Below, piece after piece: positions 13,915-50,394 of a stretch of DNA of 64,000 nt. The stretch is from Treponema sp. UBA4377. GTDB lineage: Bacteria > Spirochaetota > Spirochaetia > Treponematales > Treponemataceae. The stretch is taken from the NCBI GenBank assembly GCA_002391235.1, contig DGRX01000013.1, positions 68,742 through 132,741 on the forward strand, written 5' to 3'. The notes beneath the pieces were generated by a model. That model had not been told where the DNA came from, searched no databases, and saw only the letters and a list, made by a program, of their open reading frames with translations. A program made the position numbers and the translations under genes. Positions within the stretch are counted from its first letter, which is position 1; every line of letters starts with the position of its first letter.

Positions 13915-14026
13915 AAAACGCGTAGCGGAAAGGCAAGTGACGCGAACATAGGACACGTTAAGCTAATCACTAAGCCCCAAAAGCACCTCGCGAGCGGTCG
14001 CTTGAATTTCCGCGAGAGCGTTTTTT
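13915..14026. repeat. structured intergenic repeat, copy R1 (related to 22784..22890)
   Basis: Shares the core TAGGACACGTTAAGCTAATCACT..GCCC.AAAAG.ACCTCG and an AAAACGC/GCGTTTT closing stem with R2. Followed by TTGCAT-N17-TATGAT just before the ATG at 14063. Confidence 0.6.
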
Positions 14027-22783: not shown

Positions 22784-22890
22784 AAAAAAACGCGTAGCGG
22801 GAAGGCCGGGCGGCGAGAACTTAGGACACGTTAAGCTAATCACTTTGCCCTAAAAGTACCTCGTTCGCAGCCGCAGCTAGACGCGTTTTT
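22784..22890. repeat. structured intergenic repeat, copy R2
   Basis: Same conserved core as R1. The closing stem AAAAACGCGTAGC/GCTAGACGCGTTTTT differs from R1 but still pairs. Followed by TTGCAT-N17-TATATT. Confidence 0.6.
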
Positions 22891-23151: not shown

Positions 23152-23166
23152 ATTTTTTCAATCTTG

Positions 23167-23237
23167 GATGATTAGCTTAGTGGTAGAGCGCTTCCTTCAC
23201 ACGGAAGAGGTCGTTGGTTCGATCCCAATATCATCCA
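23167..23237 (+). tRNA. tRNA-Val (anticodon CAC)
   Basis: Hand-folded cloverleaf: acceptor GGATGAT/ATCATCC, anticodon loop TTCACAC, T arm GTTGG-TTCGATC-CCAAT; no encoded CCA. Confidence 0.85.
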
Positions 23238-23239
23238 AA
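23212..23239 (+). repeat. attL core (3' end of tRNA-Val)
   Basis: CGTTGGTTCGATCCCAATATCATCCAAA, identical to 50965..50992. Confidence 0.85.
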
Positions 23240-23318: not shown

Positions 23319-24449
23319 ATGCGTGTGACGGAACCTTACATCATATTTCCCAGAACACTTCCTTCCGGACGTGTGGTTTATTACTACCAATACCGCGACG
23401 CTTCCGGGCGGCGCTCAAGCGCCCTTTCGACCGGAGAGACGGTCCTTTCAAAGGCGAAAAGAAAAATCCAGAAGATGTACAACGATGGCGCCTTTTCGAA
23501 GGAAATCCGTTCGGTTTTGTTTTCGGATTTTGCAAAGGGCTTTTTTGACAAAGACGGAAAGTACTTTGAATTCCAAGCCCTTACAAGCCGTCCGATTAAG
23601 GACAACACCCTTATCTTGTACCGTAAGCTTCTTGCGAACCAGCTGATTCCTTTTTTTGGTGAAAAGCAAATTGGTGACGTCAGCAAGGACGTTGTGAAGG
23701 ATTGGATCGTCTGGGCGAGTGGATTCTGGTCAGCGAAGACCGTAAACAACGCCCGTGGCGTCTTGAACATAATACTTGAAGCGGCTGTTGACAAAGAAAT
23801 CATAGACAGGAATCCTTTGGCAGGAATCAAGTATAGGCCTACTGAAAGAAAGAGCCGCAGGTTGCTTACGCCAGACGAAATTAAAGAAGTGTATTTTTCT
23901 CAGCTCTGGACTAGGGATTGTCAAAGAAAAATGTTTCTTTTGGCTGCCCTTACTGGAATGAGAATAGGCGAGGTCGCCGCTTTGCGAAAAGAGGACTTGC
24001 ACGAAAACTACATCGACGTTTCTCACACGTATTCTGACAGCTTGGGGTTGGGCAGCACAAAGACCGGCGAAAGCCGAAAGGTCCCAATCTTGGAGAATTT
24101 TGATTTCGGAGAGTCGCGGACCGAATGGGTGTTTGAGGGGCTTTCTGCAGATCGTCCTATGTTCTCGCACGCGGTATACAACACGTTCGCTAGAATCTGC
24201 GACAAGCTTGGTATAGACAGGAAAGGAAGAGGAATCACGATTCATTCGCTTCGGAACTTTTTCATTTCGTACTTGCAGGAAGAGAACGTTCCTGAAAGCA
24301 AGATAAAGGCCGTTGTGGGCCACAAGGACAAGTCTGACATGACTGAGCGCTACACCTATTGGCGGCCCGATATGTTTCCCGAAGTCTACGCCGCTCAAAA
24401 AAAGCTTTATACAGCTATAGTTGGCTCAGCTGCCCAAAAGGCAAGATAA
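23319..24449 (+). CDS. tyrosine site-specific integrase (phage-integrase family)
   Basis: 376 aa; arm-binding-type N-terminus. Catalytic pattern: R (GMRIGE), K, HSLRNFF, HKDKSDMTERYTY with the terminal Tyr. Confidence 0.9.
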   Translation: MRVTEPYIIFPRTLPSGRVVYYYQYRDASGRRSSALSTGETVLSKAKRKIQKMYNDGAFSKEIRSVLFSDFAKGFFDKDGKYFEFQALTSRPIKDNTLILYRKLLANQLIPFFGEKQIGDVSKDVVKDWIVWASGFWSAKTVNNARGVLNIILEAAVDKEIIDRNPLAGIKYRPTERKSRRLLTPDEIKEVYFSQLWTRDCQRKMFLLAALTGMRIGEVAALRKEDLHENYIDVSHTYSDSLGLGSTKTGESRKVPILENFDFGESRTEWVFEGLSADRPMFSHAVYNTFARICDKLGIDRKGRGITIHSLRNFFISYLQEENVPESKIKAVVGHKDKSDMTERYTYWRPDMFPEVYAAQKKLYTAIVGSAAQKAR

Positions 24450-24628: not shown

Positions 24629-24901
24629 ATGATGGTGGAAACTGCCCAAATGATGCCGATTACAAGGCTGCAAAAGGAATTGACCCAAACCGTAAGAAAG
24701 GTTTCCGAGAAAAACGAATCTGTATACATTCTCAAAAACAACAATATGGAGGCGGTTATTGTTCCATTCCACGAATACGAATATCTTTCCGCCTTAGAAG
24801 AGGCCTTCGAGCGGTTGGAAATCGCGGAAAACCTTGCCCCAAGAATGAAGCGCTACAACGCGGCGAAATCTGTCAGCTGGGATTCCATAAGGAAAGATTG
24901 A
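24629..24901 (+). CDS. Phd/YefM-family antitoxin
   Basis: PITRLQKELTQTVRKVSEKNESVYILKNNNMEAVIVPFHEYE is typical of Phd/YefM; its stop overlaps the toxin ATG (ATGA-type junction). Confidence 0.75.
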   Translation: MMVETAQMMPITRLQKELTQTVRKVSEKNESVYILKNNNMEAVIVPFHEYEYLSALEEAFERLEIAENLAPRMKRYNAAKSVSWDSIRKD

Positions 24902-25231
24902 TGGACAAAGAAAAAAAAAGAAGTCCGAATCAATTTCATTCCCGAAGCCGTCGAAGACTACAATAATCTTGACGGAAGCCAAAGAAAATCCGTCAACAAG
25001 GAAATTGACAAACTGAAGGCCAACCCATTCGCGGGCCGGGAGTTTGGAAACAAGGACAACGTGGATTTGACCGGCTTCTACAAAATGTACGCATGCAACA
25101 AAAGCATACGGATTGTTTACAGGCTGCTCTCCGCCGAGAAAATAGAAGTGGTGGAAATTTGGGGAATCGGAAAAAGGGACAAGCTGAAGATTTACAAGAC
25201 TGTGGGAGCGAGGGCGAACAAAGCGAAATAG
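24901..25231 (+). pseudogene. relE: RelE/ParE-family toxin gene interrupted by a frameshift in an A9 tract
   Basis: The ATG at 24901 reads MDKEKK and stops after 21 codons. The next frame from 24920 reads EVRINFIPEAVEDYNNLDGSQRKSVNKEIDKLKANPFAGRE...IRIVYRL..EKIEVVEIWGIGKRDK (RelE/ParE-like) up to the TAG at 25229. Removing one A from A9 (24911..24919) restores a single ORF. Confidence 0.7.
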
Positions 25232-25327
25232 GAAGCGGCGGATGCCATAAAAGCTGTAACGGCAAGTTATGGCTACAAGCCTGAGCGCTCTCGTCTCCGC
25301 GGACAGACGGGTGCCGCCATTGCTTCC
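25231..25327 (-). ncRNA. about 97-nt three-way-junction repeat (3WJ element), copy v1
   Basis: Minus-strand GGAAGC-AAT-GGCGG...CCGCC-GCTTCC with two internal hairpins. Minus-strand TTGACA (25361..25356), a 16-nt spacer and TACAAT (25339..25334) place +1 at about 25327. Confidence 0.5.
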
Positions 25328-25560
25328 AAGAATATTGTAGCGCAATTTGCGCGCGTGTCAATTACTCACGTTGAGTAAAAGGCTTGACGGTTGTTGCGTA
25401 TGCACTATACTTGGATTGTCGGTTACGTCAGAGATAGCCGCTGCGGCTTTTCCATATTAAAGAGAAAATCTTCCGACATTACATTGTTCGACCGTAATGC
25501 CTTTATGAAGGACGGAACCCTTGTACCTTCGGAAGATTAGTAAAAACGTAACACAAAATT

Positions 25561-25641
25561 GCCGTTGAAGTTCGCCACACTTCCTCAACCGCCGGACAAC
25601 AAGTGTCCGACCCCGCAGCAGGCATCTCTACATTAAACGGC
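25561..25641. repeat. about 80-bp structured repeat (second copy at 46450..46529)
   Basis: GCCGTTGAAGTTCGCCAC...CGGACAACAAGTGTCCG...CATTAAACGGC with a closing stem and an internal hairpin. Confidence 0.55.
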
Positions 25642-25643
25642 AA

Positions 25644-25740
25644 GGAAGCGGCAGAAACCATAAATGCGGTGAACGCCAGATATGGCTACAAACCTGAGTT
25701 TCACGAGATATACGCTCGGGTGGGAGCTGCCATTGCTTCC
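25644..25740 (-). ncRNA. 3WJ element, copy v5
   Basis: Same architecture with GGCAG/CTGCC replacing GGCGG/CCGCC. The same TTGACA/TACAAT promoter sits immediately upstream on the minus strand. Confidence 0.5.
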
Positions 25741-25834
25741 AAGAATATTGTAGCGCAAATCGCGCGCGTGTCAATTACTCACGTTGTGTAAAAGGCTTGA
25801 TGGTTGACGCAGCGCTCTTCTTTCTTTAATTCCG

Positions 25835-31748: not shown

Positions 31749-31759
31749 TCAGAAAAAAA

Positions 31760-31849
31760 CGTTGTTACGGCGGGAGTCGAACCCGCAATATCAGCTCTTC
31801 GGTTTACAAAGAACTGCCCGCTACCGTGTTGCGACCATCAATAACAACG
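31760..31849 (-). ncRNA. tRNA-mimic element TL1
   Basis: Minus strand: an 8-9 bp acceptor-like stem CGTTGTTA/TAACAACG, linker TTGATGG, D arm TCGC-AACACGGTA-GCGG, an 8-9 bp anticodon-like stem, canonical T arm GCGGG-TTCGACT-CCCGC, then TTTTTTT. Not a canonical tRNA. Confidence 0.55.
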
Positions 31850-31946
31850 GGAAGCGGCGGATGCCATAAAAGCTGTAACGGCAAGTTATGGCTACAAGCC
31901 TGAGCGCTCTTTTCTCCGCGGACAGGCGGGTGCCGCCATTGCTTCC
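31850..31946 (-). ncRNA. 3WJ element, copy v2 (directly 5' of TL1 on the minus strand)
   Basis: Nearly identical to v1. On the minus strand it is preceded by the hairpin CGGCAAGA-TTTTTG-TCTTGCCG plus a T run. Confidence 0.5.
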
Positions 31947-31949
31947 AAA

Positions 31950-32057
31950 AAAACGGCAAGACAAAAATCTTGCCGACGTTGCCCAAGTTAGCGGATTTCT
32001 CCGTTGTTCCCCCGGCGCCTTCCAATATAGCGCGCGTCCGCGTTTTTGTCATTAAAG
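31950..32057 (+). repeat. about 108-bp direct repeat (second copy at 32282..32389)
   Basis: AAACGGCAAGACAAAAATCTTGCCG...GCGGATTTCTCCG.TG.TCCCCCGGC..CTTCCAATATAGCGCGCGTC....TTTTTGTCATTAAAG. Confidence 0.7.
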
Positions 32058-32069
32058 TAATACTTTATT
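32050..32069. promoter_or_regulatory. palindromic cassette-boundary site s1 (variant CATTAAAG-taata-CTTTATT)
   Basis: The right arm runs into TTGACA (32068..32073), followed by N17 and TACACT (32091..32096), forming a plus-strand promoter. Confidence 0.6.
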
Positions 32070-32100
32070 GACAACTTCTTCTTTTTAGCTTACACTTAAA

Positions 32101-32281: not shown

Positions 32282-32389
32282 AAAACGGCAAGACAAAAAT
32301 CTTGCCGCAAACACCCGAGTTGGCGGATTTCTCCGGTGCTCCCCCGGCATCTTCCAATATAGCGCGCGTCTGGGTTTTTGTCATTAAAG
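32282..32389 (+). repeat. about 108-bp direct repeat, second copy
   Basis: See 31950..32057. Confidence 0.7.
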
Positions 32390-32401
32390 TTCTGCTTTAA
32401 T
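32382..32401. promoter_or_regulatory. palindromic site s2 (CATTAAAG-ttctg-CTTTAAT)
   Basis: Contains the TAA stop of the ATPase gene; leftward ATGACA-N17-TATATT promoter. Confidence 0.6.
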
Positions 32402-33767
32402 GCGCGAACCGTGTTATCGTGTCTTCGATGGAATAGCCGCTGTCATTGGAATTGTTGTAAATGTCAATTAAAAAATATGAAATATCCAGCGCTGTCGTTT
32501 TTGAATCCATGTCGCATTTTCCATCGCAAAGAGTGGCAGAAAAAGCAATCTTGCCAAAATTTTCTTCTATGCAATCCGCAAGGGGCTTTGTCTCAAGTTG
32601 CCCCGAATGGTTGATTTCAAAAGCGAAAGTCTTTTTTTCTTTTCTGTCGCAAATGATTAAAATCGCGATGTCCTCATAGCCTTTGGATTTTGCCAACACT
32701 CTTGCGACGCGCCATCTGTACAGTTTTGTATATCCCAAGTCTTCGCAATAGTCGCCCTTTTTCTCCAGCATTTTGAATGCGTCCGCTATTACGAATTGTT
32801 CTAGAATTTTTTCATAAGCGCGCTCGCGGCTGTTGTTCAAACTTGCGAAGTACATTCCTGGATTTGAAAGCACCTCAAGACGATGGCAGCTTTTGTTCTC
32901 TTTTGGGTTGTCGAGGTTCACACGCAAGGTTTCTATGGGAAGTTCAAGTATCACATCCATTTCTTTTAGAAGCTTGTGAACTGTTTCATAAATCCGTTCC
33001 GAATATGAGTTGTAGAAATCGTCCAGCCCAATATTTTGAATGTAAAAATTTATAATCGTGCGAATCGCGTTTTCGGCCTCTTTTCTTTTGCAAGGATTTT
33101 TCAAATCGAGCGGGTAGCAATGCGGGCCTTTGTCGCTTTTTTCAACCGACTTTATGAAATTATCGACGATGCAAGATTCGATGTATTCTTTTGTTGACTG
33201 TTTTGTTTCAAAAGGATTTTGCTTTGACAGCGCGCATCCATGTTTGATGTAATGGTCGATGGAACTGTTGCCTCTAATTCTTGCGAATTCCGCAAACGGC
33301 ATGTATGTTGTATGAACAATTTCGATTCTGTCATACAAGCTTGAATGCGACGCAAGCGACAGCCCCAAAGACTCTGTTCCCGACACGACAATTCTGGCGT
33401 TTTTTAAGTCAACTAAATTGTCTGAAAGAACTTCCGCCAAAATTTGGAATTTGTCGGTAAGAGTTATCTCGTCAATAAAAAAATATTTTTTTCCGCTTGC
33501 GATTGACTCTCTTAAAAATTCCACAATCCGGCGAAAATTGGATTCTTTTTCACAAGTGATGAAAACGGATTTTTTTCTTTCTTCGTCTGGAATGGAAAGA
33601 GCCGCTTGCTTCATAAGCGTTGTTTTTCCTGTTCTTTTAAGCCCAAAAACGCCGCAAATTCGTTTTTGGTTTTCACTGCGCAAGTAATTAACAATCTTGG
33701 AAAGACAATCTCGCTTTTGAGGAAATTCATCTTTTATTTTGGAAATGTCAGTGGACCTAAAATCCAT
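32397..33767 (-). CDS. AAA+ ATPase (COG1373-like, probable DUF4143 C-terminal domain)
   Basis: Walker A GLKRTGKTT, Walker B FFIDEIT; 456 aa. Confidence 0.7.
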   Translation of the reverse strand: MDFRSTDISKIKDEFPQKRDCLSKIVNYLRSENQKRICGVFGLKRTGKTTLMKQAALSIPDEERKKSVFITCEKESNFRRIVEFLRESIASGKKYFFIDEITLTDKFQILAEVLSDNLVDLKNARIVVSGTESLGLSLASHSSLYDRIEIVHTTYMPFAEFARIRGNSSIDHYIKHGCALSKQNPFETKQSTKEYIESCIVDNFIKSVEKSDKGPHCYPLDLKNPCKRKEAENAIRTIINFYIQNIGLDDFYNSYSERIYETVHKLLKEMDVILELPIETLRVNLDNPKENKSCHRLEVLSNPGMYFASLNNSRERAYEKILEQFVIADAFKMLEKKGDYCEDLGYTKLYRWRVARVLAKSKGYEDIAILIICDRKEKKTFAFEINHSGQLETKPLADCIEENFGKIAFSATLCDGKCDMDSKTTALDISYFLIDIYNNSNDSGYSIEDTITRFAH

Positions 33768-33816
33768 AATTTCTTTTTGGCGGACAGGCGGGTGCCGCCA
33801 TTGCTTCCAAAAAAAT

Positions 33817-43155: not shown

Positions 43156-43267
43156 AAAAAAAAACGCTCCCGCCAAAAGGCAGGAGCGAATGCCGTTAGA
43201 GGGCAGCGCTCCTCTGTCGCAGAATCCCGAAGGAAACACCGCAGTGGCTATCTCTGACGTAAACGAC
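43156..43267 (-). ncRNA. empty-cassette transcript T2 (promoter, conserved leader, conserved tail, terminator, no ORF)
   Basis: TATAAT at 43279..43274. Leader GTCGTTTACGTCAGAGATAGCCACTGCGG. Tail identical to the 3' end of 46536..47183. Terminator CGCTCCTGCC-TTTT-GGCGGGAGCG plus T9. Confidence 0.5.
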
Positions 43268-43299
43268 AAGCGTATTATAGCGCAAGAGCGGGAAGCGCG

Positions 43300-43319
43300 C
43301 ATTAAAGTTGCGCTTTAAT
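43300..43319. promoter_or_regulatory. palindromic site s9 (CATTAAAG-ttgcg-CTTTAAT)
   Basis: Contains the TAA stop of 43315..44022; provides the -35 region for T2. Confidence 0.6.
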
Positions 43320-45884: not shown

Positions 45885-45926
45885 CCCAAACTCTTACCTA
45901 AAAACGGCGCTTTAATAACAAAAAAA

Positions 45927-46010
45927 CGTTGTTGCGGCGGGGGTCGAACCCGCAATACGAACTTTATTGCGTAAAGTTTCCTCTACCGCGTTGAGGGCAT
46001 CGCAACAACG
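45927..46010 (-). ncRNA. tRNA-mimic element TL2
   Basis: 10-bp stem CGTTGTTGCG/CGCAACAACG, linker ATGC, D arm CCTC-AACGCGGTA-GAGG, 6-7 bp anticodon-like stem, T arm GCGGG-TTCGACC-CCCGC, then TTTTTTT. Confidence 0.55.
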
Positions 46011-46106
46011 GGAAGCGGCGGAAACCGTAACGACGGTAAACGCCGTTACAGCTACAAGCCTGAGCGCTCTCGTTTCCGCGGACAGACGGGTGCCGCCATT
46101 GCTTCC
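46011..46106 (-). ncRNA. 3WJ element, copy v3 (directly 5' of TL2 on the minus strand)
   Basis: Hairpin P3 is CTGTAAC/GTTACGG (a U-G pair on the minus strand). Confidence 0.5.
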
Positions 46107-47218: not shown

Positions 47219-47238
47219 CATTAAAGCCGCGCTTTAAT
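47219..47238. promoter_or_regulatory. palindromic site s13 (CATTAAAG-ccgcg-CTTTAAT)
   Basis: Leftward ATGCGC-N17-TATAAT, 9 nt before the ATG at 47183. Confidence 0.6.
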
Positions 47239-47248
47239 GAAAAAAAAC

Positions 47249-47345
47249 GGAAGCGGCGGAAACCGTAACGACGGTAAACGCGCGTTACGGCTACAAGCCT
47301 GAGCGCTCTCGTCTCCGCGGACAGGCGGGTGCCGCCATTGCTTCC
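47249..47345 (-). ncRNA. 3WJ element, copy v4
   Basis: P3 is CCGTAAC/GTTACGG; followed on the minus strand by GTTTTTTTT. Confidence 0.5.
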
Positions 47346-47444: not shown

Positions 47445-47464
47445 CATTAAAGTTGTACTTTAAT
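47445..47464. promoter_or_regulatory. palindromic site s14 (CATTAAAG-ttgta-CTTTAAT)
   Basis: Leftward ATGACA-N16-TATAAT promoter. Confidence 0.6.
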
Positions 47465-48596: not shown

Positions 48597-48616
48597 CATT
48601 AAAGTTGTGCTTTAAT
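48597..48616. promoter_or_regulatory. palindromic site s15 (CATTAAAG-ttgtg-CTTTAAT)
   Basis: Upstream of the lipoprotein gene promoter; left boundary of module A. Confidence 0.6.
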
Positions 48617-49060
48617 ACTGTGCCAGTTGAGATGATGCAACGTTGCGCCATCTTGTATTTCTTTCTTAATTGTCAACGGATTCGTTTTTTCCATAGTGCC
48701 TAAAAGTGCCCCAAAAGTGCACTCAAAGTGCCCCAAAAAAAATGTAATGTGGGGCACTCTAAAGCACTATAATAAAAAGAATTAAACGAATTATGGGGCA
48801 CTTTTCTTTATCTTGCCTTTCGGACAAATCACTTGACTATTTCTTCTTAGGGTGTATTTTCATCCTGCCAACTTTTTTTTGCTTGGTACGGACGGCTTTT
48901 GGCTAGCCGGGAGCAGTCCTTGGGTAAAATGACTGACTGGCTCGCAAGATGGCGCAACGTTGCGCCGTCTTAACTGCGAAAATTTTTCTAGGGAAAGCGC
49001 AAACTTTCAGCTTATAAGAACTTAGTTTGCGCTGGTAACCTGAGCCATAATTTTTTTTTC
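48617..49060 (+). repeat. ORF-free module A (iterons AGTGCCCC, flanking 22-24 bp palindromes)
   Basis: Palindromes GATGATGCAACGTTGCGCCATC (48631..48652) and AGATGGCGCAACGTTGCGCCGTCT (48947..48970). Iterons at 48695..48802. Stem AGCGCAAACT/AGTTTGCGCT. Parallel architecture to 49965..50394. Confidence 0.65.
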
Positions 49061-49222: not shown

Positions 49223-49369
49223 TATTCAATAAACCATTGACGGAATTATGTTTGCCTGTTACTATATTATCGCTTGAAGAGGAATCAATTTCTTCGCCGA
49301 GTGTTAAAGGCTTGTCCGAAAGGGCAAGCCTGATTTTTTTAAACTGAAGCGGCGGATTTTGTCATTGCT

Positions 49370-49479
49370 AAAAAAACGCTCCCGCCAAAAGGCAGGAGCG
49401 AATGTCGTTAGAGGGCAGCGCTCCTCTGTCGCATAATTCCAATGGAAAAGCCGCAGTGGCTATCTCTGACGTAAACGAC
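49370..49479 (-). ncRNA. empty-cassette transcript T3
   Basis: TATAAT at 49491..49486; same leader, tail and terminator as T2. Confidence 0.5.
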
Positions 49480-49511
49480 AAGCAAATTATAGCGCAAGAT
49501 CGGGGAGAGCG

Positions 49512-49531
49512 CATTAAAGCCGCGCTTTAAT
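49512..49531. promoter_or_regulatory. palindromic site s17 (CATTAAAG-ccgcg-CTTTAAT)
   Basis: Provides the -35 region for T3. Confidence 0.6.
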
Positions 49532-49814: not shown

Positions 49815-49911
49815 GGAAGCGGCAGAAACTATAAATGCGGTGAACGCCAGATATGGCTACAAACCTGAGTTTCACGAAATATACGCTCAGGTGGGTGCTG
49901 CCATTGCTTCC
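49815..49911 (-). ncRNA. 3WJ element, copy v6
   Basis: TATAAT (49923..49918) lies 7 nt before the first G; followed on the minus strand by GTTTTTAT. Confidence 0.5.
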
Positions 49912-49944
49912 AAAAATATTATAGCGCTCGTCTTTAGCGCTTGT

Positions 49945-49964
49945 CATTAAAGTTGTGCTTTAAT
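49945..49964. promoter_or_regulatory. palindromic site s18 (CATTAAAG-ttgtg-CTTTAAT)
   Basis: Supplies ATGACA-N18-TATAAT for v6; left boundary of module B. Confidence 0.6.
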
Positions 49965-50394
49965 ACTGTGTCAGTAAAGATGGCGCAACGTTGCGCCGTC
50001 TTAGATTTCTATCCTAATTGTCAACAGTTTTGCCGTCCCATAGTGCGTTAAAGTGCGTTAAAAGTGCGTTGAAAAATACGATGTTTAACGCACTCCAATT
50101 ATTGATAATGTAAAGAGTTAGGAGATGTTCAACGCACTTTTCTTTATCTTGCCTTTCGGACAAATCACTTGACTATTGCTTATTAGAGTGCATTATCCTC
50201 CTACCAGCCTGATTTTGCCTGTTTTGGGAAGCTTATGGCTTGCCGGTCGCCTTTGCCGCTTGGATGGCTGGCCGGTTTTCAAGATGATGCAACGTTGCGC
50301 CGTCTTAACTGAAGACAATGCTTCTAGGGAAAGCGCAAACTTTCTGCTTAAAAGAACTTAGTTTGCGCTGGTAAACGGAGCTTTAATTTTTTCC
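49965..50394 (+). repeat. ORF-free module B (iterons AGTGCGTT, flanking palindromes)
   Basis: Palindrome core GGCGCAACGTTGCGCC (49982..49997) and GATGATGCAACGTTGCGCCGTC (50283..50304). Iterons at 50042..50138. A 43-nt block is identical to module A. Confidence 0.65.

Follow-up and report, generated by a model that had tools for sequence, protein, structure and literature searches.

A repeated three-way-junction RNA module with covarying stems in a Treponema cassette island

Intrinsic terminators, REP/BIME sequences, and Correia-type repeats place a G+C helix and a U tract at gene ends; such elements are repeated, mosaic, and co-transcribed, and they can insulate. A structured RNA attached to a cloverleaf whose T arm is of tRNA type is found in MALAT1-mascRNA and YrlA. 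Here, we analyze a family of ∼97-nt repeats in a 64,000-nt stretch of Treponema sp. UBA4377 (contig DGRX01000013.1), which we call the window and whose positions serve as coordinates throughout. These repeats are genuine copies of a folded RNA module that had not been described before. The module is a terminator-like RNA that is repeated, yet its architecture is that of a covarying three-way junction whose arms are exchangeable and which has cloverleaf partners, set in a non-integron array, and it belongs to none of the families with which we compared it.

TD-1 and TD-2 of Treponema denticola are multicopy candidate structured RNAs confined to Treponema, with modular or variable-length stems that show covariation as well as some disruptive mutations; their function is unknown, and TD-1 is mostly located 5′ of a broad range of genes about which little is known (Weinberg et al. 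2007, PMC1950547). Our element is likewise multicopy, Treponema-confined, modular in its stems, and covarying. Unlike TD-1 and TD-2, it occurs in rumen-type Treponema and is built as a three-way junction that is closed by a terminator-like helix and optionally partnered by a cloverleaf, and even at E ≤ 10, no Rfam match to either family was obtained, provided that both are in the library. Integron cassettes without an open reading frame (ORF) are noncoding units that sit among toxin–antitoxin and unknown-function cassettes, some with their own promoters or small RNAs (PMC6557892; bioRxiv 10.1101/2023.11.21.568050). The units that carry our element are also noncoding, lie in a mobile array, and are in some cases self-promoted. 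In contrast to the ORF-less cassettes, they have neither attC nor an integron integrase, their boundaries are formed by a promoter-linked inverted-repeat box, and they share one conserved folded element in place of heterogeneous sequences. From terminator-like repeats, the element differs in that its closing helix encloses a ∼75-nt covarying two-arm body and in that many copies lie exactly at a predicted transcription start; unlike REP/BIME and Correia-type repeats, it is confined to one island and is associated with no RAYT or transposase gene.

An Rfam search, proposed as a check in a preliminary description of the window, matched no family to the element. At the gathering score, Rfam 15 called only two tRNAs in the whole window; between 24.4 and 51 kb, there was no match at E ≤ 1, and single copies searched at E ≤ 10 gave chance-level matches only. 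Y RNA and YrlA, hammerhead and other ribozymes, ROOL, and GOLLD (all in Rfam 15) did not match it. The element represents a structured-RNA family with real covariation, so far confined to rumen and gut Treponema, and its place in gene-less units of a cassette array of toxin–antitoxin and RNA-enzyme genes ties it to the question of what ORF-less cassettes, TD-1, and TD-2 do.

Copies, fold, and strand of the element

The six full copies listed in the preliminary description were the only matches in the window to the pattern GGAAGC-N70-100-GCTTCC, all on one strand, against a mean of 0.27 matches in 100 shuffled sequences (0/100 reached six). On the minus strand, these are c1 (25231–25327), c2 (25644–25740), c3 (31850–31946), c4 (46011–46106; 96 nt), c5 (47249–47345), and c6 (49815–49911). 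A covariance model of the element, run over the 64 kb with filters off, scored them at 98–109 bits (c1 at 99 bits with model R1) and found no further copies beyond these six and one fragment of 17 bits (33779–33808, minus strand). This fragment, also named earlier, is real: it comprises the first 30 nt of the minus-sense element, was recovered by a repeat finder together with the main family, and is fused to the 5′ untranslated region (5′ UTR) of a STAND-NTPase gene (32397–33767), 12 nt upstream of its ATG. An additional degenerate remnant on the minus strand (49346–49369), missed by the covariance model and found by a k-mer search, has an internal deletion (AGCAAUG...AUCCGCCGCUUC) and the same downstream flank as full copies in the related loci L014 and L132. 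All window copies fall within 25.2–49.9 kb, with none in the 37 kb of flanking chromosome, and the element is present in 6–8 of >25 window units.

Read on the minus strand, the element consists of GGAAGC (P1), an AAU bulge, GGCRG (P1b), CACCC, the P2 hairpin, UUGUAG, the P3 hairpin, UUU or CAU, CYGCC, and GCUUCC. The predicted fold is a three-way junction in which a G+C-rich closing helix (P1 plus P1b, 10–13 bp, often with a 3-nt 5′ bulge) bears the arms P2 and P3, and conservation extends to most of the junction nucleotides, C(A/U)CCC and UUGUAG. Four window copies have GGCGG/CCGCC as P1b, and c2 and c6, the copies at 25644 and 49815, have GGCAG/CTGCC (GGCAG/CUGCC as RNA); these P1b types and the P2 and P3 helices, as first proposed by eye, check out in all window copies. 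The arms occur in exchangeable versions. Copies c1 and c3 combine P3 type 1 with P2 type 1, c4 and c5 combine P3 type 2 with P2 type 1, and c2 and c6 combine P3 type 3 with P2 type 2.

Outside the window, we found the element only in Treponema genome bins and metagenome contigs that share window cassettes, all from rumen-type Treponema. The initial collection of 43 copies was later extended by two diverged copies in L159 and then by six in L163–L166 (five full and one cut by a contig end); the covariance model had detected diverged copies in L107 (three), L084 (one), and L048 (one). Most pattern matches outside Treponema, in genomes and metagenomes, were chance matches of the short ends, and the metagenome loci L135–L149 were rejected as copies with ≤19 bits under the model. 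In distant relatives (L167 8660–9040 and 11150–11450; L159 1920–2205), the element, or a 69-nt version without P3, lies within a conserved leader of 180–290 nt. The extra upstream domain of that leader (…UAUGUUGG…CCAGGGUA…CUGAGG…CUAAAC) is limited to L159 and L167–170; a search for a larger conserved RNA around the element did not find it in the window.

The fold is supported by conserved pairing and covariation, which upholds the earlier claim of a repeat family whose three-way junction is kept by compensatory changes. Thirty-eight near-identical copies (23 distinct sequences) contain three versions of P3 and two of P2, together with hybrids whose crossovers lie at several positions; among them, four pairs have changed on both sides (13/88, 20/49, 58/81, and 63/76), and in one variant, the register of P1, bulge, and P1b is shifted with pairing kept. 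In an alignment of the first 43 copies (28 distinct), which was fitted to the model and contains closely related copies, 90.7% of cells were paired, and 12 pairs had changed on both sides compared with 7.9 ± 1.2 in shuffles and ≤6 with slid partners. RNAalifold on this fitted alignment recovered P1, P1b, and P3 but not P2, which exists in two nonhomologous versions. Moreover, seven copies that have diverged (L107 with three, L159 with two, L084 and L048 with one each) differ in their P1, P2, and P3 sequences, and RNAfold returned the same three-way junction for all seven when each was folded alone. Those in L107, L084, and L048 (48–61 bits) lack the bulge. The two in L159 (61–69 bits) have completely different closing helices, formed by GGG/CCC and UAGAAGC/GCUUCUA in one and by GGGG/CCCC and AGAAGACAG/CUGUUUUCU in the other.

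We favor the reading of the element as an RNA, presumably transcribed from the minus strand, because its flanking signals are asymmetric, its G·U pairs fit that sense, and its orientation matches the local promoter. A −10 box lies 5–10 nt upstream in 20/43 copies in the minus sense compared with 4/43 on the opposite strand, and a U-rich stretch, or a cloverleaf and U run, lies downstream in 38/43 compared with 0/43. G·U pairs at 12 positions (51 cells) fit the minus sense, whereas those at 6 positions (11 cells) fit only the other; two further G·U pairs are present in the closing helix of L159 copy E2. The preliminary description had judged the strand evidence mixed, and some wobbles do fit the other strand, but flanks, G·U pairs, and orientation together lean clearly toward minus-strand RNA. 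In L107, L084, and L048, copies occur in both orientations, each codirectional with its own local promoter or gene, which is not expected of sites used by an array-wide recombination system.

A function at the DNA level, as a selfish repeat resembling REP sequences or a miniature inverted-repeat transposable element (MITE) or as an attC-like fold of single-stranded DNA for cassette recombination, therefore appears very unlikely to us. Its appeal lies in boundaries that fall sharply at the base of P1 in many contexts, in contexts that are shuffled around the element, in hybrid copies, in T runs on both sides, in the confinement of copies to the cassette array, and in those wobble positions that fit the other strand. 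The element also recalls attC in being an imperfect inverted repeat whose center varies in structure, in having an unpaired bulge, and in recurring within a cassette array. Within any one array, attC sites all point the same way, whereas our element is always oriented with the local transcription signals, even where this gives opposite orientations in one locus; nor is there one copy per cassette. The element ends in GGAAGC/GCTTCC, where pairing stops, and is flanked by T runs or variable sequence; the attC core motifs (RYYYAAC/GTTRRRY, with AAC...GTT) are absent. It bears no likeness to the attC of T. denticola (TCTAAC...GTTAGR, 63–68 bp; PMC3607928). Terminal inverted repeats (6 + 5 bp) are present as in a MITE or REP sequence, but besides following local transcription, the window copies are confined to the island, and the covariation of their internal arms would be needless in a terminal-repeat MITE. 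The crossovers of hybrid copies at several positions are what homologous exchange predicts. No integron integrase accompanies the element, and the relatives of the window’s own integrase reside in prophages without it. Blastn against phage and plasmid collections gave no match, as did a scan of viral contigs with two patterns.

A coding remnant retains next to no probability, and we consider it refuted. One plus-strand frame through c1 and c2 is open and similar in both, ending ...AAIASKNIVAQ.ARVSITHV., so that a 62-aa ORF (25603–25791) and paralogous tails could be supposed. That frame is preceded in c1 by an in-frame stop and has no start codon there; c4 and c5 differ by a 1-nt indel; homology stops exactly at GCTTCC in c3–c6; and substitutions affect base-paired doublets, not third codon positions. 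Diverged copies carry 3–5-nt indels and conserve no frame.

Proposed transcript boundaries, cloverleaf partners, and possible functions

The preliminary description had pointed to minus-strand promoters set for a start at the first base of the element, and such promoters stand before three of the six window copies and 20/43 overall. Those of c1 (25334–25361; 11/12 matches) and c2 (25747–25774) read TTGACA-16-TACAAT, and that of c6 (49918–49947) reads ATGACA-18-TATAAT, all on the minus strand and each ending 6 nt before the first base, G1. In c1, c2, c6, and many other copies, the −10 box ends 6–9 nt before G1. The −35 box of c2 is closely preceded by the inverted repeat TTACACA-acg-TGAGTAA, and that of c6 overlaps an inverted-repeat box at 49946–49964. 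In other contexts, the element follows a leader RNA that ends in a terminator hairpin (c3, c4, and c5), another conserved noncoding RNA, or a stop codon; the copy at L107 2804, for instance, starts 1 nt past a stop codon and has a T run after it. The hairpin before c3 is CGGCAAGA-uuuuug-UCUUGCCG followed by U7 (terminator 31975–31954). Copy c5 belongs to a gene-less unit flanked by inverted-repeat boxes (47446–47464 and 47220–47238), in which a promoter (47447–47420), a leader of ∼75 nt with a terminator-like hairpin at its end, the element, and U8 (47240–47247) follow one another. About half of the copies are not promoter driven: what precedes them is a stop codon, a terminator, or a leader RNA. 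A small RNA with its own promoter is therefore only one context, and a transcript-boundary module fits better.

Downstream, the element is followed by a U run and the promoter box of the next cassette, which many copies immediately precede, by a cloverleaf and a U run, or, in diverged copies, by a U run and then a ribosome-binding site and start codon within 10–40 nt. In the window, GUUUUUUUU follows c5, GUUUUUAUG follows c6, and a tRNA-like module with U7 follows both c3 and c4, in agreement with the 3′ ends described earlier. Copy c1, followed by the U-rich sequence UAUUUCGCUUUGUU, overlaps with its last base the TAG stop of a convergent relE-like ORF. The transcription antisense to relE/phd that had been suggested applies to this single copy and is not general: no other copy faces a toxin–antitoxin gene as c1 does. 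In c5 and c6, P1/P1b together with the U tract directly after it match the G+C helix and U run of a rho-independent terminator on the strand read as transcribed. The format of a simple hairpin (stem of 5–14 bp, loop of 3–8 nt) does not apply, as the helix encloses a two-arm junction of ∼75 nt, and a simple terminator scan of the window did not call the element. Furthermore, an upstream RNA that in the window ends in a plain hairpin-plus-U7 terminator (43165–43188 and 49377–49400) recurs in L084 and L048 with the element at the terminator’s position.

We propose that the element is a modular structured RNA of the minus strand that serves at transcript boundaries, as a 3′-end or insulator module, a reading that we regard as an even bet. 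The closing helix and the U tract directly after it would act as an intrinsic terminator or insulator, and the folded body would provide a compact, nuclease-resistant 3′ end. Where a promoter abuts the first base, a free-standing small RNA of ∼100 nt would result. Where a cloverleaf follows, the element may owe its 3′ end to RNase P-type processing, transcription then terminating at the U run beyond the cloverleaf. If true, a termination or insulation role would show how dense, independently promoted mobile cassettes stay transcriptionally separate, by means of a module more elaborate than a hairpin.

Several observations weigh against this proposal. The conserved, covarying P2 and P3 and the junction nucleotides are not needed by a plain terminator, and therefore, termination is probably not the whole function. 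Copies c3, c4, and c5 stand behind a terminator hairpin without a promoter of their own, and in c1 and c2, P1 is not immediately followed by a clean U tract. Four diverged copies have a start codon just 10–40 nt after the U run, which leaves no room for a promoter, so that polymerase must read through at least sometimes. In addition, the alignment behind the covariation was fitted to the model, and most copies are nearly identical and therefore represent few independent evolutionary events; both transcription and termination are deduced from sequence alone.

The diverged copies bring in a possible, if rather unlikely, alternative, in which the element is a cis-regulatory leader: a conditional terminator or attenuator that answers a protein, a small molecule, or a processive antitermination factor of the island and controls the next gene. 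In several of them, nothing but a U run and a ribosome-binding site separates the element from a start codon, and a promoter or leader precedes it. The copy at L107 4240 shows the order promoter, element, UUUU-GGAG, and ATG; in L084 and L048, the element is followed by UUUU-AAGGGA and ATG; and E1 and E2 of L159 are followed by U6–7 and then by 20–40 nt to the ATG. The window fragment in the 5′ UTR of the NTPase gene would fit as well, and the conserved junction nucleotides suggest a binding site. A riboswitch or other leader would be found in the 5′ UTRs of related genes, but the contexts are mixed, and the downstream genes are unrelated (a SLOG protein, antitoxin-like and HAD-like proteins, and unknowns). 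Most standard copies precede a new promoter box, a cloverleaf, or nothing coding, some copies come directly after a stop codon, and the existence of several exchangeable P2 and P3 versions is unlike a ligand pocket.

Cloverleaf modules of three types, with non-tRNA anticodon arms, follow at least 14 copies. In the module after c3 (31760–31849, minus strand), the acceptor-like stem measures 9 bp; a D arm, a long anticodon-like arm, and the T arm GCGGGUUCGACUCCCGC are also present, and U7 follows at 31753–31759. A second type follows c4 (45927–46010, minus strand; U7 at 45920–45926); it has the same T arm and differs from the c3 module in its D and anticodon-like stems. The two share an acceptor-like stem of 8–9 bp, an anticodon-like arm of 7–10 bp with a 5-nt loop, a T arm of the form GCGGGUUCGAC(U/C)CCCGC, and U7. 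Their T and D arms are tRNA-like, but we rejected them as true tRNAs on the basis of 19 bits with the Rfam tRNA model (cut-off 29), a negative ARAGORN result, and an anticodon loop of 5 instead of 7 nt; ARAGORN called only tRNA-Val and tRNA-Thr in the window. The mascRNA model gave 13.9 bits, a weak match below threshold. Weak evidence from RNAfold only suggests a further cloverleaf-shaped domain after c2 (25559–25643, minus strand), with an 8-bp closing stem (UUGCCGUU/AACGGCAA), three hairpins, and then UUUUGUGUU (UUUUGUG). As in MALAT1-mascRNA and YrlA, a structured RNA is here linked to a cloverleaf with a tRNA-type T arm that could be cut by RNase P, and related loci contain RtcB; unlike in YrlA, where the cloverleaf is embedded in a stem, it is appended in tandem. 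It is reasonable to infer that RNase P may process the junction between element and cloverleaf.

We also observed a tRNA-like sequence in L167 (5017–5077, minus strand; 29.2 bits with the tRNA model, covering model positions 6–65). It lies between a DUF2828/DUF7788 gene and a divergent helix-turn-helix (HTH)–HipA pair, and the locus has WYL and RtcB genes as well. Its layout recalls the rsr–Y-RNA–rtcB RNA-repair operons.

With cloverleaf partners and neighbors of this kind, the element might instead act in trans or bind proteins, in the manner of a Y RNA or tRNA mimic. Its partners would be the island’s RNase toxins or its enzymes of RNA repair, for which it would be a decoy, a sponge, or a scaffold. 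We consider this unlikely. The island encodes RNase toxins (PIN/VapC, RelE-like, BrnT, and HEPN), to which relatives add HigB and HipA, and it encodes enzymes of RNA-repair type (metallophosphoesterases and a YAcAr/SLOG protein), with RtcB, 2H ligase, and PARG in relatives. The cloverleaves with their non-tRNA anticodon arms, the tRNA-like match beside the DUF2828 gene near RtcB in L167, and the discrete RNA of ∼100 nt that promoter-driven copies would yield point the same way. Nevertheless, the element matches neither Y RNA, YrlA, nor any other Rfam family, the window contains no Ro-like gene, no partner gene is consistently adjacent, and no complementarity of ≥11 nt was found between the element and other minus-strand sequences or transcripts of the window. 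We hold little expectation for the bolder proposal of a new class of tRNA-mimicking noncoding RNA belonging to a mobile “RNA-conflict” island, in which the element would serve as decoy, sponge, or scaffold for VapC, RelE-like, BrnT, HEPN, or RNA-repair enzymes, resemble a Y RNA without Ro, and have its partner specificity set by the exchangeable P2 and P3. Binding of toxins or repair enzymes, if it occurs, would make this a new tRNA-mimic system.

The cassette island and its other repeats

The transcript-boundary module that we propose is housed in an island at ∼24.5–50.9 kb, with a GC content of 39–48% compared with ∼50% in the flanks. The island starts after tRNA-Val (23165–23238) and a tyrosine integrase gene (23319–24449). 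It encodes Phd, a RelE/YoeB-like toxin, VapB, VapC (PIN), BrnT, HEPN, four metallophosphoesterases, YAcAr/SLOG, the STAND NTPase, and HTH regulators. Of the relE/phd neighbors named earlier, phd was borne out (Pfam PF02604), whereas the relE-like ORF has only a weak YoeB-type match. The relE-like frame (24899–25231) has no in-frame start codon after the phd stop, and an ATG at 24900 belongs to a different frame, with the A-rich run GAAAAAGAAAAAAGAAG downstream; the toxin frame may be a frameshifted pseudogene, an assembly error, or a case of slippage.

The only recombinase, at 23319–24449, matches Pfam Phage_integrase and, far below cut-off, Xer-type models (archaeal XerA, XerD, and XerC); an integron-integrase model did not match it. 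Its relatives (63–76% identity) occur in ordinary prophages that carry neither the element nor the inverted-repeat box, and for this reason, we rejected a link between element and integrase. We likewise rejected a canonical integron, since neither repeat resembles the attC of T. denticola and the integrase gave no integron-type match.

The inverted-repeat box forms an array of 17 copies of ATTAAAG-N5-CTTTAAT between 32051 and 49964; a few read AATAAAG on the minus strand. Each box lies 20–22 bp from a minus-strand −10 box, and several stand between divergent promoters. Promoter-like sites number 36, three times the 10.8 ± 3.2 expected. Related contigs contain the same cassettes in a different order, with homology breaking at or beside the boxes; the island is therefore an array of self-promoted cassettes shuffled between strains. 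Two roles are conceivable for the box: that of a shared operator or activator site, or that of the point at which a non-integron array exchanges cassettes. With its promoter-linked boxes, lack of integron machinery, and strain-shuffled cassettes, the array merits a description of its own. Variant boxes occur at 25366–25384 and 25779–25797.

Other noncoding repeats accompany the element in the island. A second conserved noncoding family (GCUUGUCGUUUACGUCAGAGAUAGCCACUGCGG...GAGGAGCGCUGCCCUCUAACG) occupies 43158–43319 and 49370–49531 on the minus strand, with a related plus-strand copy near 25412–25470. In the window, a box promoter drives it and a strong hairpin-plus-U7 terminator ends it; in L084 and L048, the three-way-junction element follows this RNA instead. 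Tandem promoter-plus-leader units at 31950–32070 and 32282–32402 (minus strand; GGAAGRYGCCGGGGGA...), each ending in CGGCAAGA-uuuuug-UCUUGCCG and a U run, make up another type of small gene-less transcription unit. Toward the end of the array, at 48.6–50.4 kb, there are further short repeat families, among them the palindromic hairpin AAGATGGCGCAACGTTGCGCCGTCTT, which is repeated at 48597–48682, 48929–48976, 49945–50030, and 50264–50311 and scores as a terminator on both strands. Outside the island, a 75-nt direct repeat (GGAAAGGCAAGTGACGCGAACATAGGACACGTTAAGCTAATCAC...) occurs at 13927–14001 and 22800–22874 with 77% identity, its second copy lying ∼290 nt upstream of tRNA-Val.

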